Made by a program: the position numbers and the translations under genes
Source: Helicobacteraceae bacterium
Lineage (GTDB): Bacteria > Campylobacterota > Campylobacteria > Campylobacterales > SZUA-545
DNA: 37,149 nt
NCBI GenBank assembly: GCA_031273735.1
Contig: JAISRI010000213.1
Coordinates: forward strand, 1 to 37,149
Direction: 5' to 3'
The notes under the pieces: model-generated
What the model saw: the letters and a program-made list of their open reading frames with translations, nothing else
Database searches by the model: none
Told to the model about the DNA's origin: nothing
In this document: positions 1,511 through 25,923 of the stretch, in pieces
Layout: each line of letters begins with the position of its first letter
Numbering within the stretch: position 1 is the stretch's first letter

Positions 1511-1531
1511 TGCGGCGGGTTTAGCGCCGTT

Positions 1532-2527
1532 TCAAAATCTGCTAACGCTAATTGCGATCGCGCTCCATACGCCGCCGTTTTCTAACAGCGCGATCAACTC
1601 TTCAAGGCTCTCGCCGCGCCCCGCTTGCAACGCATACGCGCCTGTTTGCTCAAAACGAGAAAGCGTAAGCGGTTTTTGCGAATAGATCGCGATATAAAAA
1701 TCTTTCGCAAACTCTCCGCCGTTCGTAGAGGCTACTAAATCTAGCGTTGGATCGATACTTTGCGGAATTGTTACGCGCTTAAACGCTTTTATCGGCAAAT
1801 TGCCCGCCATTAACGCCGTTTGACCGCTATCGTATAGATTAAAAAGCGATATAAACCCGTCCGATTCCGCCGTTAAATATAATGAAAATGATTCGCCCTC
1901 TTTTAAGCGCTCTTTACTCGCGCTAATCGTTATTCGCGCATCGATTCTTTCGGGATATAACCGCTCTAAACTTTCGTCGTTCCACGCCAAAACCGCATCG
2001 TTTGTTCCTACCAACCAAACGCCGTTTTGAATATATACTTTTAGCGCTATATCGCACCCTAAAATCTCTTTTAATCTCTGCCCCGTAAAAGAGCCGTTTA
2101 GAAAGCCGCTTTTTTGCGCGCATTTTGGCTTGCCGATCTTTGCGGTTAAACGCTCTTCAAACGGACGAATATCATAACTAAGAGCCGCGAAAAAACGTTC
2201 GCCGATCGACGTTTCATAAATCGTTTCTACGCCGCTTAACTTTGCTTCGCTATAAACGCTTAGATTTCTTGTCGCGCTCCGTTCGTAACTATTGCGATCG
2301 AGCGTCGTTTGTTCTAAAAACTCCGATTTTACCTGCGTTTTTAGCGTATTGGATATTTGCGCTAGCGCCGCGTTTCGCGCCGATTGGGTATCAGCGCCCT
2401 CCCCGTAGCCTATGATAATATATTGACTAGTCGAAGGCTTGCCAAACCACGCGGGTTTGATCTGTTTTTGTTTCTCGCCGCAACCAAAAAGCAAAGCTAA
2501 ACATATAATCGGTAAAAAGATTTTCAT
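1532..2527 (-). CDS. Putative lipoprotein: LPP20-like N-terminal region plus DUF4384-like C-terminal region
   Basis: Signal peptide with LFGC lipobox-like site. GYGEGADTQSARNAALAQISNTLKTQVKSEF resembles LPP20-family lipoproteins. The C-terminal SKERLKEGESFSLYLTAESDGFISLFNLYDSGQ resembles DUF4384, a domain often found with caspase-domain proteins. Its start overlaps the upstream stop (ATGA at 2524-2527). Confidence 0.6.
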   Translation of the reverse strand: MKIFLPIICLALLFGCGEKQKQIKPAWFGKPSTSQYIIIGYGEGADTQSARNAALAQISNTLKTQVKSEFLEQTTLDRNSYERSATRNLSVYSEAKLSGVETIYETSIGERFFAALSYDIRPFEERLTAKIGKPKCAQKSGFLNGSFTGQRLKEILGCDIALKVYIQNGVWLVGTNDAVLAWNDESLERLYPERIDARITISASKERLKEGESFSLYLTAESDGFISLFNLYDSGQTALMAGNLPIKAFKRVTIPQSIDPTLDLVASTNGGEFAKDFYIAIYSQKPLTLSRFEQTGAYALQAGRGESLEELIALLENGGVWSAIAISVSRF

Positions 2528-4962
2528 AGCTCTAACTTATTATTGCCTTCGATCGTAGGCTCTTGGAGATATATGTCGCCTTTTTGCCACGATACCTTTT
2601 TCACCTCCGAAGCGGTCTTTTTATAGAGCAGATCGAGATCGATTTTATCGTTTTCCAATAGCGATCGCGTCAGATAGTAGGTAAATAATCTATGCGGTTT
2701 TTCGGGGTGCGCGGAGCTAAATTGCGCGCTTGTTCCCGCCGTAATCACCACCATTTTGCTACGATCGAATTCGGGGCGTTTGGTTTTGAATAATCCCGCC
2801 GCTACGCCCTTGAAATTTGATATATTATCGGTGCGTCCGCTAAAGCAGCTATCCACAAAGGCTATTACCTGTTTTGCCCCGCTGTTAGACAGACGGTTAT
2901 ATACCTCCGTAGCCATCAGATTTCGCTCTTTTGTTACGTAATCGACGACCTTATCTTTGGGCAAAAAATACGCCTCGCCGCCGCTTGGATTTGGTATTCC
3001 GTGTCCCGAATAGTAAAAGTAGATCGAATCGCCTTTTTGCACGTTCGCTAAAAAGCGTTTTAGGTGATCGTCAAATACGGAAGCGGTGGCGCGATCGTCG
3101 ATAAACGAATAGGTATGGCGATCGTCTATGCCGAGCCTTTTTTGCGCCGCTTTTACAAACGCTTCGGCGCTGTTTTTTGCGTAGATCACGTCGTCCGTTT
3201 CGTCGTAATGTTCCACCGCTACGACAAAGAGCCATTTTTTGGAATCGATCGGCGCTTGTTTTGCCTTTGCTATTAGCGGCGCTAGATCGTCCTGCTCGTT
3301 TCCTTGAAAACGCAGCGCTTTTACCGCAAAGCGATCGATTAGATTGGGGTTTTGCAAAACGGGAGCGTCAAAGTTTATCTTTTCGTCTTTTAACGCGACT
3401 TTAATCGGCTCGTTTTTGAAATCGCCTTTGCTTACGGAAGCGACGGCTTCGCTAAAAAACCCGTAGGGCAAACGTATATCCGAAAGCTCCATTACGTCGT
3501 TTTTGATCGCAAAGGTTACCCGCGCTTCGACTTGGTTTAATCGGTTAAACATATCTTGCGCGTCTTTTGGCGCGATCGCAAACTCTATTCTTTGTTCAAA
3601 GCCGCCGCGAACGGCGTAAATCGTAGCGTAGGCGATCTGTCTTTCCGCGTCATAGACAAAATCGCGCAGAGCGGGAGCGCCAAACTCTTTTGCCATCTCC
3701 TCGCTTAATAGCGCTTCGCGCCGTTGCGGCAGCGTCTGTATATATGTTTGGCGTTCAAGATTGCGCGCTTCGACCGCTTTGCGATAGCGCTCTTGAACAT
3801 GCTCGATCTGTTTTTCGCGCTCCGCCGCCGCCTTGTCGATACGCGCTTGAAACTCGGCTTTGGTTTCAAATTGGCTTTTTGTAAGAACGGGCGCTTCGGG
3901 GAGGCTAGGCGGAGGAATATCCGTGAAAACGGCGTATCCCGCCTTTAGCCGATCTTGGACATTTCTAGCGATTAGCGCCATTTTATCGCCCGTTTGTATA
4001 TCCCACAACCTAACGGTTTGATCGTCGCTTCCAGAAAGAGCGTATTTGCTATCAGAGCTAAAGGCGACGGAATTAACCAAAGAGCTATGCCCCGTAAATC
4101 GGCGAATCTCTCTACCTGTCTGTATATCCCATAACCTAACGGTTTTATCGCCGCTTCCCGAAAGAGCGTATTTGCCGTCAAAGCTAAAGGCGACGGAATA
4201 AATCCTGCCATCGCCTTGTCCCGCAAAGCGGCGAATCTCTTTGCCCGTCTGCGTATCCCATAGCCTAACGGTTTCATCGTAGCTTCCAGAAAGGGCGTAT
4301 TTGCCGTCGGCGCTAAAGGCGACGGAACTAACCCAGTCGCTATGTCCCGTAAATCGGCGAATCTCTTTGCCAGTTTTTATATCCCATAACCTAACGGTTT
4401 TATCGGCGCTTCCAGAAAGAGCGTATCTGCTATCAAAGCTAAAGGCGACGGAATAAACGCTAGAGCTATGTCCCGTAAAGCGGCGAATCTCCTTACCCGT
4501 TTTTATATCCCATAATCTAACAGTTTTATCGCCGCTTCCCGAAAGAGCGTATTTGCCGTCGGCGCTAAAGGCGACGGAATAAACGCTAGAGCTATGCCCC
4601 GTAAATCGGCGAATCTCCTTACCCGTTTTTATATCCCATAACCTAACGGTGTTATCGTCGCTTCCAGAAAGGACGTATCTATTATCGGCGCTAAAGGCGA
4701 CGGAATTAACCAAAGAGCTATGCCCCGTAAAGGTTTGCGAAGCGGACGTGGTAATAGCGATAGCGCTAGGACTATATACGCCGTATCTCTGGCTCTCCCA
4801 AACAACCTTATTTTGCGCGGGTTTATTCGGATCGATCCGCTTAACGGCGGGGCTAGCGTTTTGATTAGTCTGCCCGGCGATACCCAAAGGTCTTACCCCA
4901 ACGCAACCCAAAAGCAAAACCGCGCAACCGATCCATAAAAACGTTTTTATAACCCTAGCCAT
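2524..4962 (-). CDS. Secreted/lipoprotein WD40-repeat protein with C-terminal caspase-like (peptidase C14) domain
   Basis: 812 aa with an N-terminal signal and LLGC site. Six tandem 42-43-aa WD40 units span aa 78-330. A coiled-coil/unknown region spans aa 331-575. The C14 domain carries a His-Cys dyad: YSGHG (H654, nt 3001-3003) and DSCFSG (C706, nt 2845-2847). Confidence 0.85.
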   Translation of the reverse strand: MARVIKTFLWIGCAVLLLGCVGVRPLGIAGQTNQNASPAVKRIDPNKPAQNKVVWESQRYGVYSPSAIAITTSASQTFTGHSSLVNSVAFSADNRYVLSGSDDNTVRLWDIKTGKEIRRFTGHSSSVYSVAFSADGKYALSGSGDKTVRLWDIKTGKEIRRFTGHSSSVYSVAFSFDSRYALSGSADKTVRLWDIKTGKEIRRFTGHSDWVSSVAFSADGKYALSGSYDETVRLWDTQTGKEIRRFAGQGDGRIYSVAFSFDGKYALSGSGDKTVRLWDIQTGREIRRFTGHSSLVNSVAFSSDSKYALSGSDDQTVRLWDIQTGDKMALIARNVQDRLKAGYAVFTDIPPPSLPEAPVLTKSQFETKAEFQARIDKAAAEREKQIEHVQERYRKAVEARNLERQTYIQTLPQRREALLSEEMAKEFGAPALRDFVYDAERQIAYATIYAVRGGFEQRIEFAIAPKDAQDMFNRLNQVEARVTFAIKNDVMELSDIRLPYGFFSEAVASVSKGDFKNEPIKVALKDEKINFDAPVLQNPNLIDRFAVKALRFQGNEQDDLAPLIAKAKQAPIDSKKWLFVVAVEHYDETDDVIYAKNSAEAFVKAAQKRLGIDDRHTYSFIDDRATASVFDDHLKRFLANVQKGDSIYFYYSGHGIPNPSGGEAYFLPKDKVVDYVTKERNLMATEVYNRLSNSGAKQVIAFVDSCFSGRTDNISNFKGVAAGLFKTKRPEFDRSKMVVITAGTSAQFSSAHPEKPHRLFTYYLTRSLLENDKIDLDLLYKKTASEVKKVSWQKGDIYLQEPTIEGNNKLEL
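3973..4731 (-). repeat. In-frame tandem repeat, 126/129-bp period, 6 units (WD40 blades)
   Basis: Units such as TATATCCCATAACCTAACGGTTTTATCGCCGCTTCCCGAAAGAGCGTATTTGCCGTC recur almost verbatim (for example at 4123 and 4504). Protein units are nearly identical: KTVRLWDIKTGKEIRRFTGHSSSVYSVAFS.D.KYALSGS.D. Confidence 0.85.
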
Positions 4963-4989
4963 AGCCGCTCCTTAACAAAGGCTTATTTC

Positions 4990-5400
4990 TAAACGCAAAT
5001 CATACTACGACAACCTTTGATCGCGATCCGCTCTAAAATTGGATCGTCGCATTCCGAAAACTACCTTAAACAAAGTAAATTCTACAAACGCGGTCATTTC
5101 CGCAAATTTAAGCGTAAGCGCGTCCCTTCTTGTCATTCCCGCGACGGAGCGATAGTTTTCATAGGAAGCGTCCATCGCGAAGGAAAGCGGAAACCCAAGC
5201 CAAGACCAACGCATTCAGAAATCTTACGTATTTTCAGCAAATCCCACAAATGCAGTCATTCCCGCGTAGGCGGGAATCCAAATACGCGAAGCGTGCGTAT
5301 TCATATTTACGAATGATCGAAAGCGATCGCAATTCGTAGGTTTTTTAATTTGGATTCCCGCCTACGCGGGAATGGCGGCATTTGTGGGTTTTAGGCGAAT
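4990..5400. repeat. Intergenic repeat block 3: partial Z (about 5080-5105), Y3 inverted (5132-5196), Z2 (5228-5286), Z3 inverted (5349-5400)
   Basis: Z2 is near-identical to Z1 (TATTTTCAGCAAATCC.ACAAA....GTCATTCCCGCGTAGGCGGGAATCCAAATACG). Z3 is its reverse complement, about 62 bp away. Y3 is the reverse complement of the Y1/Y2 type. Confidence 0.8.
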
Positions 5401-6097: not shown

Positions 6098-7228
6098 ATG
6101 GCGTCCGCATTTGTCAGCTACGCGCATGAAAACGCGAGAATCGTCGCGTCGGTCGTCGATCGGCTTGCGGAAGCCGGCTATAGCGTTTGGTATGACCGCG
6201 AAATCCGCGCCAGCTCTACTTGGACGGACGAAATCGCAAGAGCGATTGACGAGTGCGAGATTTTTATCGTCTTTTTGTCGATCGAGGCGGTCGCTTCGCT
6301 ATTTGTTCAAAGCGAGATCGAATACGCTTTTCGCAGGCAAAAGAAGATTATCCCCGTCTATCTCGATCCGATCGAAAATCTACCGCCCGGACTCGCGCTT
6401 GGACTAAACAAGGTGCAAGGCGTGGTCGGAAACGGCTCCGCGTCGATCGCTAAAAAGCTATACGTCTGCCTAGAGCAAAACAATATCCCAAAATCCTCGA
6501 AGGCGAGTTTGAAAGGTTTTTTGGCGAGCGCTTTCGTTTTTGTCGCGATCGTTTCGGCGCTAAGTTTCGCGGCGTATAGATACGAAAACGAGATCGAAAG
6601 GTTTCTACAAGTCGGGCAAAAAGAGGGAAAGCCCATCGGCGCGATCGCGCTTGCAAAAACCAAATACGCTCCCGCCGAACCGATCGAAATCAGGCTAGAT
6701 AAAGCCGCGCAAAAGGGCGCGAAAGAAGGCTTCGTCTGCGAGATTATCGAAGTCGGCGCGGACAAACGCGAACCGATCGAACGCCGCGAAGGCAAATCGG
6801 CGGGCGAAAAGATCGTTTTGCGCGCGCCCGGAATAGCGGGCGAATTTGAAGCTAGAGCTTACGCCAAAAATGGCGGGACGCTACTTGCGGTTAAACGTTT
6901 CGCGGTCGCTGGAAGCGCCTCCTATTCATACAAGATCGCTACGGACAAAACGACCTATAACGCCAGCGAGAAAATCTCGATAAAACTTAGCGGGGTCAAA
7001 AGCGATTCGATCGACAAGCGCGTAACGATAGGCGTATGGCGTATATGGTCGTCTTCAAGCGAGCCGATCGAAACGAAAATCGTCGATAAGAAAAACCAAA
7101 GCGTTACGTTTTTAGCGCCTAAAGAGAGCGGACGTTATGAGATTCGAATCTATAATAACGCGGAGATTCTTACAAGCGCGACTTTGACGGCAAAAGCCCA
7201 AATAAACGTTCGTAATCTTAGAAGATAA
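6098..7228 (+). CDS. TIR-domain protein with one transmembrane helix and two C-terminal beta-rich repeat modules
   Basis: aa 3-125 fit the TIR_2 pattern (FVSYAHEN, GYSVWYD, IFIVFLS, SLFVQSEIEYA). The TM helix FLASAFVFVAIVSALSFAAY is aa 141-160. Two similar modules end in APGIAGEFEARAY and APKESGRYEIRIY. Confidence 0.8.
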   Translation: MASAFVSYAHENARIVASVVDRLAEAGYSVWYDREIRASSTWTDEIARAIDECEIFIVFLSIEAVASLFVQSEIEYAFRRQKKIIPVYLDPIENLPPGLALGLNKVQGVVGNGSASIAKKLYVCLEQNNIPKSSKASLKGFLASAFVFVAIVSALSFAAYRYENEIERFLQVGQKEGKPIGAIALAKTKYAPAEPIEIRLDKAAQKGAKEGFVCEIIEVGADKREPIERREGKSAGEKIVLRAPGIAGEFEARAYAKNGGTLLAVKRFAVAGSASYSYKIATDKTTYNASEKISIKLSGVKSDSIDKRVTIGVWRIWSSSSEPIETKIVDKKNQSVTFLAPKESGRYEIRIYNNAEILTSATLTAKAQINVRNLRR

Positions 7229-7437: not shown

Positions 7438-8913
7438 ATGACGCTTAAAGCGATCGCTCTATACGACGAAACAATCGTTCAGTGCCACGACGCTCCCGAT
7501 CCAGATACGATCGCTTGCGGATTCGCTTTATGGCGGTATTTGACCGAACGCGGCGTAAGAACGCGGCTCGTATATTCCGGCGCGAAAAAGATCGAAAAAC
7601 CAAACGTCGTTTTGATGGTCAAACTGCTGAATATTCCGCTCGAATACGTTAGCGAATTGGATCGCCCAAAACTGTTAATAACAGTAGATTGTCAATACGG
7701 CGCGGGCAACGTTACGCGCTTTGCGTGCGATCGTTTCGCGGTTTTCGACCACCATCGTTTAGAGAGCGCCGAATCCGACGATCTAGTTATTCAACCGCAA
7801 TTAGGCAGTTGTTCGACGCTTATTTGGGATCTGTTGCGAAAAGAAGGGTTTGATTTTGCCGCCAATCCGAACGTTACGACCGCGCTGGTTTATGGCTTGC
7901 TGACGGACACGCTAGAGGGCGCGGAGTCGCGCCACCCGCTCGATCGCGATTTAGCCGAGTTTGACGGCGCGGATCATACGATCATCAAGCAACTAAGAAA
8001 CTCCGCTTTGACGATCGACGAACTGCGAATCGTCGCAAACGCGCTCTCCTCGTCGCGGCAGATCGGCTCGATCGGTCTTATAAGCGCCGAAGAGTGCGAT
8101 CCCAATCTGTTGGGCTTTGCTAGCGACGTGGCTAAACAGGTCGAAAGTTTTGATTGTTGCGTCGTCTATGCGCCGCACAACGCGGGGATAAAGCTATCGA
8201 TCAGAAGTTGCGTGCGCGAAACGATGGCAAACGAGTTAGCCGTTTTTATTACCGACGAGGTTGGTAGCGGCGGCGGCAATCAGGAAAAAGCTGGCGGCTA
8301 CTTCTCTTTACGATCGATAAACGGCGGCGCGCCCGAAGATTTTATCGCCAAAAAGATCAAAGAGTATCAATCGCGCTACGATTTTATCTACGCAAACAAC
8401 CACAATATCGATCTAGCTTCGTTTCCGCGCTATCGCAAACTGCCGATACTGGTCGGTTTTGTTAAAACGACGGATATTTTTCCCGAAGGCGCGCCGATTT
8501 GCGTTCGCACTCTTGAAGGCGACGTAGATACAAAAACGCGCAAAGATATTTTTCTTATGATCGGCGTCGACGGCGAGATATATCCGATTGAAAGGTCTAA
8601 TTTTGAAAAGAGCTACGACGTTTTAAGCGATCAGTATATCTGCCGCAACGAATACGAACCGACAATCATAAACTTGCGAAGCGGCGAAAAGAGTTCTATT
8701 TTGCCGTTCGCGCAAAGTTGCTTGCCAAAAGCGCAAACAATTATCCGCGCCGCGCCGCTTAAAAAGGAAACGAAGGTTTTTACTCGTTGGGATACGGAAA
8801 AATACTTTATGGGCAGGATCGGCGACTATCTCGCCGCGCCTTGCGACGATCCAAGCGACATTTATATTATCAAACGCGATATAGCGCATAAAACATACGA
8901 GCCGCTAGACTAA
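7438..8913 (+). CDS. DHH/DHHA1-family phosphoesterase with an unassigned C-terminal domain of about 180 aa
   Basis: Motifs seen: HDAPDPDTIACG (motif I), LITVDC (II), FDHH (III, aa 103-106) and the DHHA1-like GSGGGNQEKAGG. The region aa 315-491 matches no domain I can name. Confidence 0.8.
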   Translation: MTLKAIALYDETIVQCHDAPDPDTIACGFALWRYLTERGVRTRLVYSGAKKIEKPNVVLMVKLLNIPLEYVSELDRPKLLITVDCQYGAGNVTRFACDRFAVFDHHRLESAESDDLVIQPQLGSCSTLIWDLLRKEGFDFAANPNVTTALVYGLLTDTLEGAESRHPLDRDLAEFDGADHTIIKQLRNSALTIDELRIVANALSSSRQIGSIGLISAEECDPNLLGFASDVAKQVESFDCCVVYAPHNAGIKLSIRSCVRETMANELAVFITDEVGSGGGNQEKAGGYFSLRSINGGAPEDFIAKKIKEYQSRYDFIYANNHNIDLASFPRYRKLPILVGFVKTTDIFPEGAPICVRTLEGDVDTKTRKDIFLMIGVDGEIYPIERSNFEKSYDVLSDQYICRNEYEPTIINLRSGEKSSILPFAQSCLPKAQTIIRAAPLKKETKVFTRWDTEKYFMGRIGDYLAAPCDDPSDIYIIKRDIAHKTYEPLD

Positions 8914-17990: not shown

Positions 17991-19535
17991 TTATTTAGAT
18001 TTAATGCCAATTCTGATCGCTTCGTCCATACTTGTTACTCCTTCGGCTACGAGGGAGATAAGCTGATGTTGCAAAGTCCGCATGCCTTTTTTAATAGCTA
18101 GATCGCGAATCGCGTGTTCTTCGATCGTCTCTTTGAAAAGCGCAATCGCTTCGTCGTCGGGAATAAACAGCTCGCCAATCGCCCTTCTGCCTTTGTAGCC
18201 CGTATGGTTGCATTCGGGGCAGCCGCCCGCTTTGTAGATTTTGGTTCCGCGTTTTATGCCAAACTCCGTTTCGTAACTTTCGGCTAACTCGTCTTCGATC
18301 TTGCATTTTTCGCATAACTTCCGCGCTAATCGCTGCGCCAAAACTCCCAAAAGCGACGAACTGACCAAAAACCGTTCTACGCCCATATCGACAAGCCGCG
18401 TGATCGCGCCCGTAGAGGTATTGGTGTGCAAAGTGGAAAAGACAAGGTGTCCCGTCAAAGCGGCTTGAATGGCAATCGACGCCGTTTCGCCGTCGCGTAT
18501 TTCGCCGATCATCACCACGTCGGGATCTTGACGCAAGATTGATCTTAAGCCCGCCGCGAAAGTAAGCCCCACTTTGGCGTTTGCTTGAACCTGATTGATA
18601 TTGTCCGCTTTGTATTCTACGGGGTCTTCCACGGTGATCACATTCTTTTGCGGCGTGGCGATCTGTTGCAAAAAACTATGAAGCGTGGTAGATTTGCCGC
18701 TTCCCGTAGGTCCTGTAACGAGAATGATCCCGTGCGAGTGTTCCAGTAGCGCCGCTAAACGCGCGATCAAGCTCGGCTCGAAGCCAAGCTGTTGCAGATG
18801 GGGAATCTCCGCGCTCTCCATCAATATCCGCATAACGACGCGTTCGCCGTAGTATGTCGGCAACACGGAAACGCGAATATCCAAAGCGCGTTTGGCGATA
18901 TTAACCTGCGTGCGCCCGTCTTGAGCCAGGCGCTTTTCGGATATATCGAGGTTGCTTATGACCTTTATGCGGCTGATCACAAGATTGATAATGCGTAGAT
19001 CCAGATCGACGTATTTAACCAAAGCGCCGTCGATCCTAAAGCGCACTTCGCCTTTGCGTTCGTGCGCTTCGATGTGAATGTCGCTTGCGCCCTTTTTGAT
19101 AGCCTGATAAAAGAGCGCGTTGACAAAACGAATAATTGGGGCGGCTTCCTCGCTGTTAAGCAGATCGGCTTTGTTGCGCAAAAACTCGGCTAGGCTAAAG
19201 CCCTCTTCCTCTTCGGCGACCTCGTTTATGCGATTGTCCGCGCCGCCGATCGCGCTTAACTCCTTATCCGTGCGTTGTTCTAAAAAGCGATTATAGAGGC
19301 GATCGAAGCTCTCTTGATCAAGCAGGTAAATCGGCGCTTCGGGCGCGTATTTACTAAGAAAGCCTAGCGATTCCGCCAAATATGGTTCGCCAAGACAGAT
19401 CGCGACTTCGCCGCCGACCTTCGCAAAAAGCGCGTAGTATTTTAGCGCCAGCGCGGAGTCGATCCCCTCGAAAGAGGAGGGCTCTAAATCGTGGCGGCTA
19501 AGTCTTTGAAACTCAACGTTTGCGGCTATCGACAT
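17991..19535 (-). CDS. gspE: Type II secretion ATPase GspE (PulE family)
   Basis: Walker A GPTGSGKST. It also has Asp/His boxes, DPDVVMIGEIRD, and a C-terminal tetracysteine motif (CEKC...CPEC). Confidence 0.88.
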   Translation of the reverse strand: MSIAANVEFQRLSRHDLEPSSFEGIDSALALKYYALFAKVGGEVAICLGEPYLAESLGFLSKYAPEAPIYLLDQESFDRLYNRFLEQRTDKELSAIGGADNRINEVAEEEEGFSLAEFLRNKADLLNSEEAAPIIRFVNALFYQAIKKGASDIHIEAHERKGEVRFRIDGALVKYVDLDLRIINLVISRIKVISNLDISEKRLAQDGRTQVNIAKRALDIRVSVLPTYYGERVVMRILMESAEIPHLQQLGFEPSLIARLAALLEHSHGIILVTGPTGSGKSTTLHSFLQQIATPQKNVITVEDPVEYKADNINQVQANAKVGLTFAAGLRSILRQDPDVVMIGEIRDGETASIAIQAALTGHLVFSTLHTNTSTGAITRLVDMGVERFLVSSSLLGVLAQRLARKLCEKCKIEDELAESYETEFGIKRGTKIYKAGGCPECNHTGYKGRRAIGELFIPDDEAIALFKETIEEHAIRDLAIKKGMRTLQHQLISLVAEGVTSMDEAIRIGIKSK

Positions 19536-21348
19536 GTTTGATAATCTCTTTGGCGTATTGCAAACGAATCGCTTCCAGTTGGCTTAAACGCGCTCTTAAA
19601 GACGATAGATCCTCGCTTTTTTCCACAATATAGGGCGTTACGATCACGACCAGACTCGTTTTATTGATACCCTCTTGCGTGTTACGAAAGAGATTGCCCA
19701 CAAAGGGGATCGCCGAAACGAACGGCACTTTTGTTTCCGTTTTGATCTCTTCGTTTTTGATCAGCCCGCCCAAAATCACGGGTTCGCCGTCGCTAACGAT
19801 TGCGCTTGTTAAAACGCGCCGTTTGGTCGTCGTGGGTTGCGCGCTTCCATCTACGCCTACGATCCCTTCTAGTTGGGCTTCGATCGTGAGCGCGACTTTT
19901 TTATTGGTCGAAAGGCGCGGTTTGACTTTTAGCGTTAAACCGATGTCCTGACGAGCGTAGTTTCTTGTGGGAATACCCGCGCTTGTCGTCGTTTCCGACG
20001 TTAGAATCGATCGCGTTTCGCCCACGTAAATCGTGGATTCTTTGTTATTGACGCAGAGAATCGACGGTTCGGATAGCACTTCCGCGGCTTGGTTGCTGGT
20101 AAGCAGGTTTAATCCCACGCCCACCGCCAGCGCGGTCGCGCTTTCAACTTTGACGTTGCCGTTTGCGTCGGTTTTTTGCAGTTGGCTTAAAATAGCCCCG
20201 CTCACCGCCGCAGGAACGCTTCCCGTAAGCGAAGCGCCTAAGGTGTATATGCCGTTGCCGCCTACAGCCGCGCCGTCTACGCCGTAGGTTATGCCAATCT
20301 GATCGGCTAGGCTGTCGCTGATTTCGACGATCGTCGCTTGAACATAGACCTGTTGGCGCGGCAGATCGAGAGATTTAATCAGCGCCTTGATCGACGCTAC
20401 GTCTTCGGGCATTCCTACCGCGATTATCACGTTCATCTCTTCGTCGGCGCTAAGGGTGGGTTTTATCTTTTGTTCGGCGGGATTGGCGACGGTTTTATCT
20501 AAAACGCCGGTAAGGATTTTGACAAGCGCGGTCGCTTCGGAGTTTTGCAGAAATATAACCTCCGCCGAAGGCGTGGCTTTGTTGTTTTCCACGTCGAGGC
20601 GATTGATAATCGATTTAATCATAGCGATATGCTTCGGTCTGCCCGTAACGAGGATCGCGTTGGAAGCGTCGTCTTTTAGGATTTGAACTTCGTTATCGAC
20701 CACTCGCGGGTTTAACACGCCCTTGACGATCTGTTGCAAAGAGGTTACGATCGACGCGGCTTTGACGTTTTTAAGCGCGATAAACTCGACGGTTAAAGCG
20801 CGTTTATCTACAAGATCGCCGATTACCTGCCGAATCGTGTTGATATTGGACGGATAGTCGCTCACCACCATCGAATTGGACTCTCTCATCGTTACGAGTT
20901 TGGCGGCGGGCGAAAGCAGATGACGGATTTTTTGGACGATAATATCTACGTTCTCCTCTTCGATACGAATCGTCTGCGTTACCATAAGAGAGCCGCTCGC
21001 CGTTCCGCTGACGACGGGGATATTCTCCTGCGCGGCTTCGGCTAAACGCACCACTTTATAGTAGCTTCCTTCCTCGACGAGCGTCAAACCACGCGTGGCT
21101 AAAACGCTCAAGGCAAGCTGCAAAATATCGTCTTTATAAACCTCGCTGGCGCTGATAAAATCGACGTTTCCAGCGACTCGCTGCGCAAGAAGCAGATTTT
21201 TGCCCATAATCCTAGAAGTCATCTTCAAAAACTCTTCGATCGGCAGATCGGTAAAATTTATCTCGACGGTCTGCCGAGCGCTCTGCGGGGGCGCGGCAAA
21301 ACATAGGCAAAATAACGTCAAAACGACGCTAACGAATCTCATAGGCAA
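19513..21348 (-). CDS. gspD: Secretin, GspD-type
   Basis: Signal peptide, N0/N1-like repeats and a C-terminal secretin core (VLSEPSILCVNNKESTIYVGE...VPFVSAIPFVGNLFR...LVVIVTPYIV). Confidence 0.88.
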   Translation of the reverse strand: MPMRFVSVVLTLFCLCFAAPPQSARQTVEINFTDLPIEEFLKMTSRIMGKNLLLAQRVAGNVDFISASEVYKDDILQLALSVLATRGLTLVEEGSYYKVVRLAEAAQENIPVVSGTASGSLMVTQTIRIEEENVDIIVQKIRHLLSPAAKLVTMRESNSMVVSDYPSNINTIRQVIGDLVDKRALTVEFIALKNVKAASIVTSLQQIVKGVLNPRVVDNEVQILKDDASNAILVTGRPKHIAMIKSIINRLDVENNKATPSAEVIFLQNSEATALVKILTGVLDKTVANPAEQKIKPTLSADEEMNVIIAVGMPEDVASIKALIKSLDLPRQQVYVQATIVEISDSLADQIGITYGVDGAAVGGNGIYTLGASLTGSVPAAVSGAILSQLQKTDANGNVKVESATALAVGVGLNLLTSNQAAEVLSEPSILCVNNKESTIYVGETRSILTSETTTSAGIPTRNYARQDIGLTLKVKPRLSTNKKVALTIEAQLEGIVGVDGSAQPTTTKRRVLTSAIVSDGEPVILGGLIKNEEIKTETKVPFVSAIPFVGNLFRNTQEGINKTSLVVIVTPYIVEKSEDLSSLRARLSQLEAIRLQYAKEIIKHVDSRKR

Positions 21349-22165
21349 GCTCTTTTATTTGGTTATTTCTGATAATCGTCATACGAAAGCTATCCATTTT
21401 ATCGATCTCCGCATAAAGGCGCAGAGCGGCGGCGTATCCGTCCAACTCGATGCCGTTCGCGCTTTTAAGCGCGTCTCCCGCTTGCAAGCCCAATTCGCTA
21501 AAAACCGAGTTTTTCGCCACGAAAGTTACGCGAAACTCTTTAAACTTCCCGTTTTCCGAAATCGGCGCGATTCCAATATTATCCCAAATCAAGCGAGGGT
21601 TTTGGCGGTATTTCGCAAGCTCGTCGCGTCCGACGACGCTTTTTGTTTGCGGCGCGTTGATCGCGCTTTGCGCGGCGCTTCTCGCGCCCGATCCTATCCG
21701 CGCTTCGCGGGTTTTATCCTCGAGGTTTAGCGCGTAGCTTGCCCCGTCTTTTAAAAAGATCGCCTTTTTCGACTCGACCGCGTTAAGCGTGTAGCCCCGC
21801 AGATTTTCGCCTACGCCGACAAAGGTTAGCGTTTTGCCGTCGTCGATAACTACGAAGCCGTTTTTGTCGCCTTCGGCGTAGATCGCCTTTAGCTTTAACC
21901 CGTCGAGCGATAGGGCGATTGGAGTCGAGGCGGTAGCGGAGCCGTTTTGCGCGATTGCCGCGTCGCCGATTCCCAAAGCGCGTTCTAGCGGATAGGAGCG
22001 CGCAAAGTTAAAGGGCGCGGAAAAGGTCTTTTCGATCGAGCTATCGGGCAGAAAAAGTCTTGCGATCGCCGCGGCTAAAGCGAACGAAGCGCAGAGAAAA
22101 CCAAAGGCGGCAAACCTAGTCTGCCACTCTGGAGAAAGCCTGTCAATAATCATACGCATAGACAA
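21329..22165 (-). CDS. gspC: GspC-like protein (N-terminal TM plus C-terminal PDZ)
   Basis: TM helix FAAFGFLCASFALAAAIARLF. PDZ-like FRVTFVAKNSVFSELGLQAGDALKSANGIELDG sits immediately upstream of gspD. Confidence 0.6.
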   Translation of the reverse strand: MSMRMIIDRLSPEWQTRFAAFGFLCASFALAAAIARLFLPDSSIEKTFSAPFNFARSYPLERALGIGDAAIAQNGSATASTPIALSLDGLKLKAIYAEGDKNGFVVIDDGKTLTFVGVGENLRGYTLNAVESKKAIFLKDGASYALNLEDKTREARIGSGARSAAQSAINAPQTKSVVGRDELAKYRQNPRLIWDNIGIAPISENGKFKEFRVTFVAKNSVFSELGLQAGDALKSANGIELDGYAAALRLYAEIDKMDSFRMTIIRNNQIKELAYEIR

Positions 22166-22673
22166 ATCCTTCTGGCGTTTTCTCTAACCTAGCAAAAATC
22201 TGTCCATATTTTTGTTGAATTTGCGACGGCGCGTTAATTGCGAGGATTATTTTGCGAGAAAATAGGTCGATCGAGCCTGAAAACGCGCCAAATTCGCCTT
22301 CGCCGCTTAAAAAAATCTTATGCGGAACAAAAATCGTATGCCGCGCTTCTAAAAAATCTACCCTCGCGGGAACCGCCGCCGCAAGCTCGTTTGAAAGATT
22401 AAACGAAGCGATCGAAAGGCGGTTGTAAAAGATTGTCGTTAAAAAAGAGATATTTTCGTTCTTGGCGGCGTTCATCTTGTCGTATACGATCGAGCCGCCT
22501 TTAAGCGAAAAGAGCCAGCCAAAATCCGACGCCTCTTCGCCGTTAATGACGATATTCAGCGGTTCTAAATAGCGCTCGGCTAAAAAATATAGCTCTCTTT
22601 TAGGCGTGAAAAATACGAGCGCCTCCAAAACGACAATCGCCCAAATCAGACCCGCTACGATCTTTTTTACCAT
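22143..22673 (-). CDS. Bitopic T2SS accessory protein, GspN-like by position
   Basis: 176 aa with a single N-terminal TM helix. It is translationally coupled within the gsp cluster. The assignment rests on position and size only. Confidence 0.3.
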   Translation of the reverse strand: MVKKIVAGLIWAIVVLEALVFFTPKRELYFLAERYLEPLNIVINGEEASDFGWLFSLKGGSIVYDKMNAAKNENISFLTTIFYNRLSIASFNLSNELAAAVPARVDFLEARHTIFVPHKIFLSGEGEFGAFSGSIDLFSRKIILAINAPSQIQQKYGQIFARLEKTPEGFVYAYDY

Positions 22674-23086
22674 ACGATTTCCAAGCTAACGTCGGCGGAT
22701 TGATCCCCTTTGCGCTCCGCCGAAAAGCTCTTTAAAGGAATTGGCGATTCTAACAGCGTCCGCGTCAAACGGCTTAGCGCCGTCGCGTCGAGGTTTCTAT
22801 ACTCCGCTTTGATCCCCTGCGCGTTCTGTTGAGCGTTTCCGCGCTGTTTTAACGCTTCGTCGTTAAATAGCGTTTGCGCCTTTGACTTTACCGCTTGAGA
22901 GCTCTCCCACTCCGATCGGAGTCTGACGATTCGTTCCGCCGTTTGCGCGATTTTTTGGTTTTCCAGCCTCGCTTCGATCAGCGCGTTTTTCGCGGCGACG
23001 CGCCAAAGCAATAAAATAAATAGCGCCGCGCAAAGCGCCGTCAAAATGTGCCAGAGCTTAACTCTTACCATTTGATCGCCGCCCAA
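22667..23086 (-). CDS. Bitopic T2SS accessory protein, GspM-like by position
   Basis: 139 aa with an N-terminal TM helix (ILTALCAALFILLLW) and a coiled periplasmic part. It overlaps both neighbours. Confidence 0.35.
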   Translation of the reverse strand: MGGDQMVRVKLWHILTALCAALFILLLWRVAAKNALIEARLENQKIAQTAERIVRLRSEWESSQAVKSKAQTLFNDEALKQRGNAQQNAQGIKAEYRNLDATALSRLTRTLLESPIPLKSFSAERKGDQSADVSLEIVW

Positions 23087-24813
23087 ACGATATTATCTTG
23101 AATCCGCGCCTCCGCGTCTGGCAACGCGCTTTTTAGGCGATCGATAATCGCTTGAGCGCCGTTTTCTTCCAATGGAGCGAAACGCGCCGCAATAGTCCGC
23201 CCTTCAAAATCCAGCTTTTCCAGCCTTGCGCTTTGCGAAAGCGAAAACAGTTTAGCCAGGGTTTCTCTAAGCCCTCGTTGCGCGGCGGCGATCTGATTTA
23301 ATCTGCGCTCTATGCTCTCTAACTGCATCTGCGTCGCGGGCAGTTTAGAGCGTTCCAAGATCGCTACGCGTTCGCTATTAAGGGCGTTCGCGGCGCTTGT
23401 CATTCTGAAAATATCGATCGCGATCGAACCTATCAAAAGCAGTAGAAACGAAGCCGCCGCCCAAAAACGTTTTTGCGGTATATCGCCCGTTTCTTCCGAT
23501 CGCGAAAGAGCGAAACTCGGCGCGCTCAAAGCGCGGGGCGTTTCGTCGAATCGCTTCGCGTTCGCGGCGAATTTTATCGGCAACGTTACCCAAGCGCCCT
23601 CGATAAAACTAAGCGCAAAATTATTTGAAAGCTCGATTGGCGAGTCGATCGCATCGAGTGCGCTTTGGGCGAAATAGACCCGCGAAATCTGCAAGAGATC
23701 AAGCCCCTGTTCATTTAACCTCCGCGCTATGTCGCTTGGATCGCAGGCGATAAATCCCCAGCCGTTTTCCTCGCGAAAAGCAAAATAGCGATAGTCGCCT
23801 TCGGGAATCCAACCAAAAAAGATCGACGCGGCGAAACGCTTGGCGGCGCGACGGCTCTTAAAGGGCGCGTCGGAGCGTTTATACCAGTAGTAGGCGGGCG
23901 AAAGCACGACGCTAATTTTGCTCTGCGCGCTGAAAAATCGCAGATCGGGATGCGCCAAAATAAGCGGGGTTTTGGCGCGATCAAATAGCGATTTCGCGCC
24001 TTTCAAAAGCGTCTCTTTTGAAAACGTTACGCGCTCTCGCGGCGCGGTTAGCGGCATAGATCGCTTTTTGGGCGTTTTTTCTTTTTCTAGCGGCGGCGTT
24101 TTTTCTTTCGCCGCTTGTTTAACGAAGGTAAAAGGCAGCGATCCAACAATCAAGATCGCGGCGCCCGCGCCGAAAAATATAGCGCACAGAGCGCGATCGG
24201 AGATAAAAACAAGCCCCGCGAAAAACGCGCCGCAAGCCGCGCCAAGAGCGATCGGGATAAGTTTGCGCTCCTGCGAAAACGCCTTAGCCAAAAATAGAAT
24301 CCACGAAAGCGCGTAGATCGCCGCCGCGCCTTTTGGAACGCCCAAAACGGCGTCGCCAAAGCCGTATTCAAGCGTAGCCGCCGCGCCGATCGCGTAGGGG
24401 CTGACGCTTAATAAGACGATCAAAAACAGCGCGATCGCCGCGCACAAAAGCCGCAAAATCCCCTCGGCAGACCAGATCGGACGTTCGCTAAAAAACGCCA
24501 TTCCAAGATTTACGATCGGAAGCAGGTGCCAGCCGAGCGCTTTAACGCACTCTAAAGAGGCGTTTTCCATTCGCCCGCCGACGATCAGCCAAAAGAGCGC
24601 GATCGCGAAAAACGCGGCGCAGGCGATCGACGATTTCTGCAAAACCGCCCCAAAAATGATCGCAATCGCAAGGGCGATCGCCGCGCAGAAGACCGCCAAA
24701 TCGGGCGCGATTGGAGTTACGCCGATTGTGTGAGAGTAGGCGAGCGTCGCGCTTAAAACGACGATCAAAAGCGGAGGTATAAACGATATAAAGATATGCT
24801 TTAGCGCGCTCAA
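23065..24813 (-). CDS. Polytopic membrane domain fused to a GspL-like module
   Basis: 582 aa. aa 1-235 contain about 7 hydrophobic helices, followed by a Lys/Pro linker. Then come a soluble domain of about 180 aa, one TM helix (FWAAASFLLLLIGSIAIDIF) and a coiled C-terminal domain of about 110 aa. That second half has GspL-like topology. Confidence 0.35.
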   Translation of the reverse strand: MSALKHIFISFIPPLLIVVLSATLAYSHTIGVTPIAPDLAVFCAAIALAIAIIFGAVLQKSSIACAAFFAIALFWLIVGGRMENASLECVKALGWHLLPIVNLGMAFFSERPIWSAEGILRLLCAAIALFLIVLLSVSPYAIGAAATLEYGFGDAVLGVPKGAAAIYALSWILFLAKAFSQERKLIPIALGAACGAFFAGLVFISDRALCAIFFGAGAAILIVGSLPFTFVKQAAKEKTPPLEKEKTPKKRSMPLTAPRERVTFSKETLLKGAKSLFDRAKTPLILAHPDLRFFSAQSKISVVLSPAYYWYKRSDAPFKSRRAAKRFAASIFFGWIPEGDYRYFAFREENGWGFIACDPSDIARRLNEQGLDLLQISRVYFAQSALDAIDSPIELSNNFALSFIEGAWVTLPIKFAANAKRFDETPRALSAPSFALSRSEETGDIPQKRFWAAASFLLLLIGSIAIDIFRMTSAANALNSERVAILERSKLPATQMQLESIERRLNQIAAAQRGLRETLAKLFSLSQSARLEKLDFEGRTIAARFAPLEENGAQAIIDRLKSALPDAEARIQDNIVWAAIKW

Positions 24814-24931: not shown

Positions 24932-25339
24932 ATGAAGCTTCTACGATTGGCGCTAACGTTTGTATTGGCGCTATTTTCGCTCTCTTGCTCAAAAACGTTT
25001 ATCGTTTTTGACGAGAAAAGCGCCGAAAGCGATCGGGCGCATCTTGTTTTCGAGACGACGATGGGGGGCGGGACGCTCGAGGCGAAAAGTTACAACGGAC
25101 AGAAGGTTTCGTGGGAATCGTCGTTCGCGGGAACCGACGTAGCGATCAAAGCGGGCGAAACGCGATTGATTTTCGACGGTACCGTTTGGCAGGGAGGCAG
25201 AGGGTATTTCGCCAAAGATTTAAGCATTGATTATAACTTTGAGAAAGGCAAAACCTACTACATATTCTTCGATCTCGTAGGTTTCAAATTTGAATATTAC
25301 ATAACGGACGAAAACAAAAACAGGCTCCGCTCTTGGTAA
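24932..25339 (+). CDS. Small secreted/lipoprotein-like protein, paralog A
   Basis: Signal sequence ending LSCSKTFIVFDE. It shares YNG.KVSWES...G...IKAG.T.L and KGK.Y.I.F with the next gene. Confidence 0.6.
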   Translation: MKLLRLALTFVLALFSLSCSKTFIVFDEKSAESDRAHLVFETTMGGGTLEAKSYNGQKVSWESSFAGTDVAIKAGETRLIFDGTVWQGGRGYFAKDLSIDYNFEKGKTYYIFFDLVGFKFEYYITDENKNRLRSW

Positions 25340-25470: not shown

Positions 25471-25923
25471 ATGAAAAAAACGCTTTGGTTTTTTATCCCT
25501 ATCGTTACTTTTTTTATGCTCTCATGCTCAAAAACTTATATCGTTTTTGACCAAGACGTATCGGAAGAGCAGACGGCAAAAGTTATTCTTGTAGATACGC
25601 TATCGGGCGGTTGGCTCACAGTTACCGATTACAATGGTAAAGAGGTTTCGTGGAGTTCGACGCTCGAAGGAAGCGGCGCGTCTATCAAAGCGGGAAAGAC
25701 TATGCTCGTATTAAAAATCGGAGATCCGAGCAATCCCGATTTGTATTCTCCAGATTCGTATTCCATAGAGAATCTAGGGCTTAATTACGAGTATGAGAAA
25801 GGCAAATTATATTTCATTGTTTTCAGCGTAACCGATAAGGTGGCAAGAATCTCGGTTCAGAATGAAAAAAGAGAAGAGCTCGAAAGTTTTTCGTGGGGAG
25901 CCGGTTCATTCCGTCGAAAATAA
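25471..25923 (+). CDS. Small secreted/lipoprotein-like protein, paralog B
   Basis: Signal sequence ending LSCSKTYIVFDQ. It is paralogous to 24932-25339 and visibly AT-richer. Confidence 0.6.
   Translation: MKKTLWFFIPIVTFFMLSCSKTYIVFDQDVSEEQTAKVILVDTLSGGWLTVTDYNGKEVSWSSTLEGSGASIKAGKTMLVLKIGDPSNPDLYSPDSYSIENLGLNYEYEKGKLYFIVFSVTDKVARISVQNEKREELESFSWGAGSFRRK

Follow-up and report, generated by a model that had tools for sequence, protein, structure and literature searches.

On the minus strand of a 37,149-nucleotide contig of a Helicobacteraceae bacterium (JAISRI010000213.1 of assembly GCA_031273735.1, analysed over its whole length and hereafter called the window), two adjacent genes encode a caspase-like protein and a second predicted lipoprotein. 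Analysis of these genes and their relatives defined a coherent subfamily of caspases with predicted export, in which a fixed module and a Peptidase_C14 domain are combined with interchangeable binding domains and accompanied by a nearly obligate partner. Gene 1 (2524 to 4962, minus strand), characterized by its open reading frame (ORF), Pfam matches and homologues, encodes the protease, an apparently exported protein of 812 aa composed of WD40 repeats, a middle module and the Peptidase_C14 domain. Gene 2 (1532 to 2527, minus strand) encodes the partner, a putative lipoprotein of 331 aa in which the ORF, a family search and an AlphaFold2 (AF2) model distinguish an LPP20-like domain, a linker with a pair of cysteines and a DUF4384-like domain. 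The ATG of gene 1 at 4962 is the earliest start codon past an in-frame stop and is preceded, at a distance of 5 nt, by the Shine-Dalgarno sequence AAGGAG (4968 to 4973). At the junction of the two genes, which reads gagctATGAaaa, the stop codon of gene 1 is shared with the start codon of gene 2 in the tetranucleotide ATGA at 2524 to 2527, and neither a promoter-like site nor a convincing terminator was found between them. The two coupled ORFs and their overlap, which a first-pass annotation made from the letters of this DNA had placed at these positions, were confirmed, and the pair stands as a genuine unit of two closely coupled genes. The window as a whole is chromosomal and carries gyrA, truB, plsX, fabH and the genes for a secretin and its ATPase.

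The partner gene is almost always located beside such a caspase gene, and the two are usually translationally coupled. We searched 77 distinct loci from species-representative genomes with a hidden Markov model (HMM) of the partner family, accepting partners on the same strand within 5 kb, and a strong partner was present at 51 of them (44 downstream, 7 upstream). The remaining loci comprised 15 that were cut by contig ends and 11 that had full flanks and no partner; for 8 of these 11, the same assembly contains a complete pair at another locus. Reciprocally, a caspase gene adjoins the partner in 14 of 20 metagenome loci that were retrieved with the partner, in a scan run with an alignment of seven sequences, while in the other six the partner was too near a contig end (four loci) or the partner match was weak or partial (two loci). 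Co-occurrence of the two genes, the expectation raised by the first-pass annotation's two-component proposal, is therefore both wide and reciprocal. The pair recurs in numerous sulfur-oxidizing Campylobacterota and in marine bacteria of the Vibrio type. Among 60 caspase-partner junctions, 21 are overlaps, and 14 of these have the 4-nt length seen in the window. Spacers of 0-30 nt separate the genes at 24 junctions and spacers of 31-200 nt at 2; at the remaining 13 the distance exceeds 200 nt and is typically around 700 nt, which gives room for an intervening gene. Several loci (L010, L011, L013, L015 and L055) carry two or three caspase paralogues in tandem with a single partner. In Sulfuricurvum sp. 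PC08-66, a complete ORF for a 624-aa DUF1566-caspase protein lies directly upstream of the partner (L085, 4108-5982) and was not called as a gene in the public record, so that co-occurrence counts based on gene calls would miss this pair.

By sequence, catalytic dyad and predicted fold, the 812-aa protein is a member of Peptidase_C14. Its C-terminal domain (aa 576-812; 2527 to 3237, minus strand), delimited by Pfam, AF2 and Foldseek, matched PF00656 (MEROPS clan CD, family C14) over aa 577-806 with 49.4 bits against a gathering threshold of 21.4 (E 6.2e-13). The catalytic residues H654, in the motif YSGHG (codon 3001 to 3003, minus strand), and C706, in DSCFSG (codon 2845 to 2847, minus strand), line up with SGHG and DSCHSG in GSU0716, a C14 protein of solved structure, and both are invariant in 15 of 15 diverse homologues that share 35-51% identity with the window module. 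The intact His-Cys dyad that had been read from the sequence earlier thus matches the catalytic positions of C14 enzymes. The Asp of the D-x-C motif is likewise invariant among the same 15 homologues and, because of this conserved Asp, the enzyme would probably cleave after Arg or Lys at the P1 position. In the AF2 model, the caspase domain has a predicted local distance difference test (pLDDT) score mostly above 90. A Foldseek search with the model of aa 331-812 returned MALT1 as the best neighbour in the PDB (E 3.6e-11, template-modelling score 0.75 when normalized by the target), and metacaspase-9, GSU0716 and CED-3 were found as further neighbours, the E values ranging from 1e-11 to 1e-8. 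Identity as an EACC1-type caspase was considered and rejected, since the protein scored 67.3 bits with the model of EACC1-associated caspases (NCBIfam NF047832), below its cut-off of 140.

Immediately upstream of the caspase domain is a middle module of 245 aa (aa 331-575; 3238 to 3972, minus strand), recognized from alignments and AF2, that aligned as conserved across the caspase family (alignments A1 and A4). Its AF2 model consists of a long helical hairpin and a small alpha/beta subdomain, followed by a disordered linker, and no credible relative was found in Pfam or the PDB (top PDB match E 0.77). A profile-profile comparison between the caspase module and the partner revealed no internal homology (probability 7%). 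With the middle module and caspase domain together (the C-terminal 482 aa), a word-index search found 208 homologues, and 249 matches were confirmed in the species-representative genome collection. Most of the matches belong to Campylobacterota, namely Sulfurimonas, Sulfuricurvum, Arcobacteraceae and metagenome-assembled genomes (MAGs) of Helicobacteraceae; other hosts are Vibrio, Photobacterium, Aliivibrio, Shewanella, Alteromonadaceae, Spirochaetia, Deferribacteraceae and Cloacimonadota. The N-termini attached to this same module were WD40, DUF1566/Lcl_C, ankyrin or TPR/Sel1 domains, or contained no recognized domain. Judged from these homologues, conservation covers the middle module together with the caspase domain, and the N-terminal domain is swapped. 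Since the N-terminal domain differs on one and the same module, WD40 is one interchangeable binding module and does not define the system.

In the window protein, this putative N-terminal binding domain is formed by six WD40 repeats (aa 78-329; 3976 to 4731, minus strand), which Pfam recognized as six stretches above threshold (PF00400, E 4.2e-78). Their pairwise identity is 57-90% (mean 74%) at the amino acid level and 67-88% at the nucleotide level. The six blades of the first-pass annotation therefore stood, and their description as near-identical was a slight overstatement given the range of amino acid identity. The number of repeats differs among close relatives: two orthologues from independent MAGs, 92% identical elsewhere, have four repeats in place of the six in the window. 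Among individual orthologues, P0002 (92% identical) has four repeats and P0015 has three. Three or four repeats are unable to close a propeller alone, which implies oligomerization, recent gain or loss of repeats, or collapse of repeats during assembly.

The partner can be divided into three parts. Its N-terminal LPP20-like domain (aa 25-125; 2153 to 2455, minus strand), supported by Pfam and a PDB profile search, opens with conserved PxW[FY] and GYG motifs. It is followed by a linker subdomain (1943 to 2152, minus strand), marked by covariation of its cysteines C136 (codon 2120 to 2122) and C158 (codon 2054 to 2056), and by a DUF4384-like C-terminal beta-sandwich (aa 199-331; 1535 to 1933, minus strand) identified by Pfam and the AF2 model. 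The LPP20 and DUF4384 similarities suggested earlier were borne out at the level of the family: at E<=0.01, LPP20 was matched by 28 of 30 aligned members (best 1.4e-9) and DUF4384 by 23 of 30 (best 3.2e-8), and the partner-family profile matched PDB 4kzs, annotated as 'LPP20 lipofamily protein', through the N-terminal domain with an E value of 1.5e-12. One partner homologue is also labelled 'LPP20 family lipoprotein' in RefSeq. We take 4kzs to be the structure of HP1454 from Helicobacter pylori. This assumption fits the description of HP1454 as a secreted protein of three domains, the first of which is Lpp20-like, and HP1454 interacts with the outer-membrane-associated proteins FlgP and FapH (PMC11756786). 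An exhaustive HMMER search recovered 309 cluster representatives of the partner family at E<=1e-3, nearly all of them 310-350 aa long and matching over the full length. Only this exhaustive search recovered the family; a word-indexed search gave one match with a single sequence and two with a profile. The AF2 model of the partner (pLDDT 83, predicted template-modelling score 0.72) shows an N-terminal domain rich in beta-alpha-beta units, the small linker subdomain and the C-terminal beta-sandwich. A Foldseek search with the whole chain gave nothing at E<1e-3, and returned only generic Ig-like sandwiches.

We conclude from sequence features of both families that the two proteins are predicted to act outside the cytoplasm, because of their signal peptides, a depletion of cysteine and a covarying pair of cysteines. 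Lipoboxes were called by a rule that required a Cys at positions 15-35, a hydrophobic region before it and an N-terminal Lys or Arg, after the PROSITE pattern. By this pattern, gene 1 begins with a signal peptide and lipobox, MARVIKTFLWIGCAVLLLG followed by Cys20 (4903 to 4962, minus strand), and gene 2 with MKIFLPIICLALLFG followed by Cys16 (2480 to 2527, minus strand). The N-terminus of gene 1 is conserved in the orthologue P0002 (the 92%-identical one) and in Aliarcobacter orthologues, and the classical lipobox pattern fits only 4 of the 56 window ORFs of at least 100 aa, with both proteins of the pair among the four. A crude scan limited to members with an initial Met detected either a lipobox or a hydrophobic signal at the N-terminus in 88 of 112 caspase-family and 124 of 144 partner-family proteins. 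A lipobox occurs in a minority of the homologues of both proteins, most of which have ordinary signal peptides, indicating that export characterizes the family as a whole and lipidation only a subgroup of it.

The cysteines tell a similar story. The mature 812-aa protein has Cys only at Cys20, the predicted site of lipidation, and at the catalytic Cys706, and the catalytic Cys is the sole Cys of 14 of 15 middle-plus-caspase modules. An odd number of cysteines was counted in 85 of 106 full-length caspase-family relatives, which fits one free catalytic Cys plus disulfide pairs. Of 130 partner homologues, 71 have both C136 and C158, 54 have neither and 5 have only one of the two, and the pair is a probable disulfide. 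Three independent signals in Cys composition hence point to an oxidizing compartment. Taken with the signals and lipoboxes, these patterns support the extracytoplasmic location that the first-pass annotation had predicted from the signal peptides and lipoboxes of the two proteins. Exported WD40 metacaspases with signal peptides were mentioned in passing in Psychroflexus (PMC3914696), so such a location is unusual and not unprecedented.

We consider it about an even chance (probability roughly 0.5) that the two proteins form an extracytoplasmic complex in which the partner anchors, oligomerizes or gates the protease, the variable domain picks the target, and envelope proteins are cleaved. Formation of the complex and a role of the N-terminal domain as a 'sensor' are parts that we infer. 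In the organism of the window, the product of gene 1 is predicted to be exported by the Sec pathway and anchored by lipid, and would join the partner in a complex located either on the outer membrane or beneath it. The partner would bind the constant middle-plus-caspase part, and by anchoring, oligomerizing or gating the protease it would act in trans much as the Ig3 domain does for MALT1 and perhaps as the fused DUF4384 does in cyanobacterial orthocaspases. The variable N-terminal domain would select a target protein or ligand, after which the C14 domain would cleave envelope proteins, probably following Arg or Lys.

A possible setting is suggested by gammaproteobacterial loci. In Vibrionaceae and Shewanella, the pair lies inside a same-strand cluster of 7-10 genes (L031, 4614-11415; L070, 2469-10849; L004, 1-8444) that contains an SLT lytic transglycosylase gene and genes for two or three extra LPP20-like proteins and for several exported proteins without a known family; the transglycosylase of L031 additionally has an MltC N-terminal domain. 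In a Sulfuricurvum locus (L018), the partner has two LPP20-family genes at a distance of about 2 kb. These extra genes are limited to the gammaproteobacteria and a few Sulfuricurvum loci, and clustering of 674 flanking ORFs revealed no conserved third gene at the Campylobacterota loci. The gammaproteobacterial cluster suggests a role in the layer between the outer membrane and peptidoglycan, and the transglycosylase and extra LPP20-like lipoproteins suggest that the targets or context of the predicted complex would lie there.

The pair shares features with several known systems. WD40-orthocaspase fusions are known in cyanobacteria (PMC5756287; PMC7475262), where orthocaspases with a fused DUF4384 also occur (PMC7475262). 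The window protein shares with bacterial orthocaspases, including GSU0716 of Geobacter (PDB 3bij), the Peptidase_C14 domain, the SGHG and DSCxSG dyad motifs and the caspase fold, as well as fusion to WD40, TPR or Sel1-type repeats and an association of DUF4384 with the caspase domain. Unlike in those proteins, WD40 here is N-terminal, behind a signal peptide or lipobox, the caspase domain comes after a conserved 245-aa module without a known family, a separate protein with an LPP20-like domain provides DUF4384 in trans, and the whole system is predicted to be extracytoplasmic.

MALT1 paracaspase, which the predicted caspase domain matched best in structure, has the D-x-C motif in common with this domain and also partners its caspase domain with an Ig-like beta-sandwich, comparable to the DUF4384-like sandwich here. 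The Ig3 domain of MALT1 regulates its caspase domain, and by this analogy we infer that the DUF4384-like domain may have a regulatory role. In contrast to the window system, MALT1 is eukaryotic and cytoplasmic and has Ig3 fused in cis, and the identity between the two is only about 17%. Exported peptidases of clan CD include the gingipains and PorU (C25) and the fragipain and clostripain-like enzymes (C11), which have the caspase-hemoglobinase fold; some are lipoproteins, and several require Arg or Lys at P1. The window protein belongs instead to family C14; the C25 and C11 enzymes differ in accessory domains and secretion routes, and none is generally known to have an LPP20/DUF4384 partner. 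On the side of the partner, the N-terminal domain, homologous to the first domain of PDB 4kzs, is like those of H. pylori HP1454, Lpp20 (HP1456) and FlgP. The LPP20-family proteins of H. pylori are exported and outer-membrane-associated, and some self-associate (PMC11756786), but they have no match to the Cys-pair linker and DUF4384-like sandwich of the partner and, unlike the partner, are not linked to a caspase gene.

Several observations weigh against the proposed complex. The window partner by itself scored just under the gathering threshold for LPP20 (PF02169, 25.5 against 25.9 bits) and under that for DUF4384 (PF14326, 20.1 against 27 bits), and its beta-sandwich had no significant neighbour in the PDB, the nearest being Ig-like and macroglobulin-like folds. 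For the middle module, AF2 gave only moderate confidence (pLDDT about 60-80), the signal-peptide calls are based on pattern and hydropathy, and the P1 specificity is read from a single conserved Asp. At three loci with full flanks (L063, L066 and L077) an intact partner is missing, and their assemblies yielded no complete pair at another site.

The pair also behaves as a relocatable cassette, a property that bears on the first alternative. The DNA of the two nearest MAGs is about 90% identical to the window over 1512-5098 only, a segment that spans both genes, and the flanks are unrelated; the homology breakpoints at 1512 and 5098 coincide with clusters of repeats resembling repetitive extragenic palindromic (REP) elements. 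A repeat unit at 1421 to 1497, downstream of the pair and identified through repeat pairs I1 and I8 and a pattern search, is inverted relative to an upstream unit at 5119 to 5198 found by the repeat search, and a search with the pattern of these flanking repeats gave two matches where none was expected. The bracketing by inverted repeats noted earlier was in this way confirmed, with an inverted pair at 1472-1497 and 5119-5144 within REP-like clusters at 1220-1500 and 5074-5392. Motifs resembling REP elements or miniature inverted-repeat transposable elements form clusters at 200-530, 1220-1500 and 5074-5392, with the palindrome ATTCCCGCGTAGGCGGGAAT at 291, 5258 and 5354; they were found only in the first 5.4 kb of the window and flank a GNAT gene (618-1181) as well as the caspase cassette. 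Another copy of the pair is carried by the 82-kb plasmid pSULFM1 of Sulfurimonas aquatica H1576 (NZ_CP046073.1, 23316-26122; L107, 6767-9573), where the genes overlap by 4 nt and are annotated 'caspase family protein' and 'LPP20 family lipoprotein'. Genes for a Fic protein and for 'mobile mystery protein B' are located near this plasmid pair.

It is possible, and in our judgement unlikely, that such a mobile pair is an envelope conflict or defence module, whose N-terminal domain would sense a foreign periplasmic protein from a phage, toxin or competitor and whose caspase would cut the partner or an envelope target, thereby blocking entry or killing the cell. The unrelated contexts of the repeat-flanked cassette in relatives with 90% DNA identity and the plasmid-borne copy agree with this idea, as do the exchange of sensor-type N-terminal domains on a constant effector, the tandem expansion of paralogues, the patchy spread across phyla (Campylobacterota, Vibrionaceae, Shewanella, Spirochaetia, Deferribacteraceae and Cloacimonadota) and the occurrence of toxin-antitoxin genes and a TIR gene near several loci. 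However, many loci stand amid housekeeping genes (hemA and proS in L002, coaX and hisG in L003), the 674 clustered flanking ORFs contained no recurrent defence neighbour, and the partner has no invariant Lys or Arg to mark a fixed cleavage site. The pair was also absent from the phage collection searched, and with no match there a phage origin was rejected. A catalogued defence system was rejected as well: in PADLOC-DB 2.0, the protease matched only the generic 'caspase' model (E 3.8e-9) and the partner matched nothing.

A more doubtful alternative is that the partner is the dedicated substrate of the protease, a pro-protein that the caspase would mature, for example by splitting its domains, to yield a functional product that might be an oligomeric layer lying beneath the outer membrane. 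In favour of this reading, the coupling of the genes is tight and nearly obligate, large assemblies arise by self-association of LPP20-family relatives, FlgP among them (PMC11756786), and the partner has an inter-domain linker rich in basic residues and low-confidence loops in its model (residues 66-94) that could be accessible. Yet the partner alignment contains no invariant basic residue, and varied N-terminal domains and several caspase paralogues per partner are hard to reconcile with a sole substrate.

We regard as very improbable the idea, drawn by analogy, that the C14 domain serves as a transpeptidase or ligase attaching a target protein to an envelope acceptor. Clan CD does include transpeptidases and ligases, such as PorU, GPI8 and the legumain-type ligases, and the intact dyad, the predicted extracytoplasmic location and the association with a peptidoglycan-cleaving enzyme in gammaproteobacteria would suit such a reaction. 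We know of no member of C14 with this activity, however, no data are specific to the idea, and neither a motif like a sorting signal nor an acceptor was identified. Hardly credible is a conventional cytoplasmic orthocaspase-WD40 death effector whose signal peptides are artefacts of start-codon choice: cyanobacterial WD40-orthocaspase fusions are common and discussed as cytoplasmic (PMC5756287; PMC7475262), but the export evidence disfavours this reading, as no earlier start codon lies between an in-frame stop and the ATG at 4962, which is preceded by a strong Shine-Dalgarno sequence, signal peptides are conserved in divergent homologues of both proteins, cysteines are depleted in the protease and covary as a pair in the partner, and the N-terminal domain of the partner has its homologue in a secreted protein of H. 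pylori.

The neighbourhoods of the pair contained further genes that we record as observations in their own right. About 1.1 kb from the cassette in the window, past an Hsp20 gene, is a gene (6098-7228, plus strand) whose 376-aa product carries a TIR_2 domain at its N-terminus (E 7e-25), together with a hydrophobic segment and a C-terminal region without a family, and gave weak PADLOC matches to ThsB-like and TIR defence models. At other loci, a nucleotidyltransferase and HEPN-like gene pair, by our own reading of the sequence, lies between the caspase and partner genes (L018, 6448-7117), a BrnT toxin gene follows the partner (L085, 7031-7306) and a zeta toxin gene lies upstream (L001, 1635-2556). 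In the nearest relatives, a gene for a CHASE2-guanylate cyclase adjoins the pair (L001, 9425-11614); CHASE2 proteins accompany the WD40 metacaspases with signal peptides of Psychroflexus torquis (PMC3914696), and CHASE2 is listed as an accessory domain of cyanobacterial orthocaspases (PMC5756287). A DHH-family protein is encoded near the pair in the window (7438-8913, plus strand) and at five gammaproteobacterial loci, including L031 (3332-4333, minus strand); the N-terminal motifs of the window and gammaproteobacterial proteins look alike, and the proximity may be coincidence. Elsewhere in the window, two genes on the plus strand (24932-25339 and 25471-25923) encode paralogous small predicted lipoproteins with LSCSKT[FY]IVFD in their N-termini, and open a stretch at 25-29 kb in which the GC content is only 0.38-0.44, compared with about 0.48 overall. 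A type II/IV secretion ATPase gene (T2SSE) overlaps the secretin gene on the minus strand at 17991-21348 and is followed by several ORFs without a family at 21329-24813, which may form a pilus or type II secretion cluster.

Bacterial caspase homologues are nearly always presented as effectors of death or defence in the cytoplasm, and a substrate or partner is known for very few of them. In our literature searches, we found no description of the pairing of a caspase with an LPP20-DUF4384 protein, of the conserved middle module or the systematic export, of a near-obligate partner supplying DUF4384 in trans on an LPP20-like scaffold, or of the gammaproteobacterial cluster of the pair with a lytic transglycosylase. 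The partner unites two poorly understood domains, LPP20-like and DUF4384, and its genetic linkage to the protease provides a concrete and testable hypothesis for the role of DUF4384 beside caspase domains. Genetics and biochemistry could be attempted, as the pair is present in cultured organisms, including Aliarcobacter skirrowii, Sulfurimonas aquatica (on its plasmid), Aliivibrio wodanis, Vibrio chagasii and Shewanella species. More broadly, the predicted complex of an exported caspase and its partner points to caspase-type proteolysis in the Gram-negative envelope. A speculative and rather unlikely extension is that an LPP20/FlgP-like assembly under the outer membrane holds a ligand-gated caspase, and that a specific ligand from the periplasm or surface, once bound to the interchangeable N-terminal domain (WD40, DUF1566, ankyrin or TPR), would set off proteolysis of envelope components. 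If true, DUF4384 would gain its first function, as a caspase-docking or caspase-gating domain, and the assembly would be an extracytoplasmic counterpart of sensor-caspase signalling that may serve envelope immunity or surveillance, or the regulated remodelling of the layer between the outer membrane and peptidoglycan.

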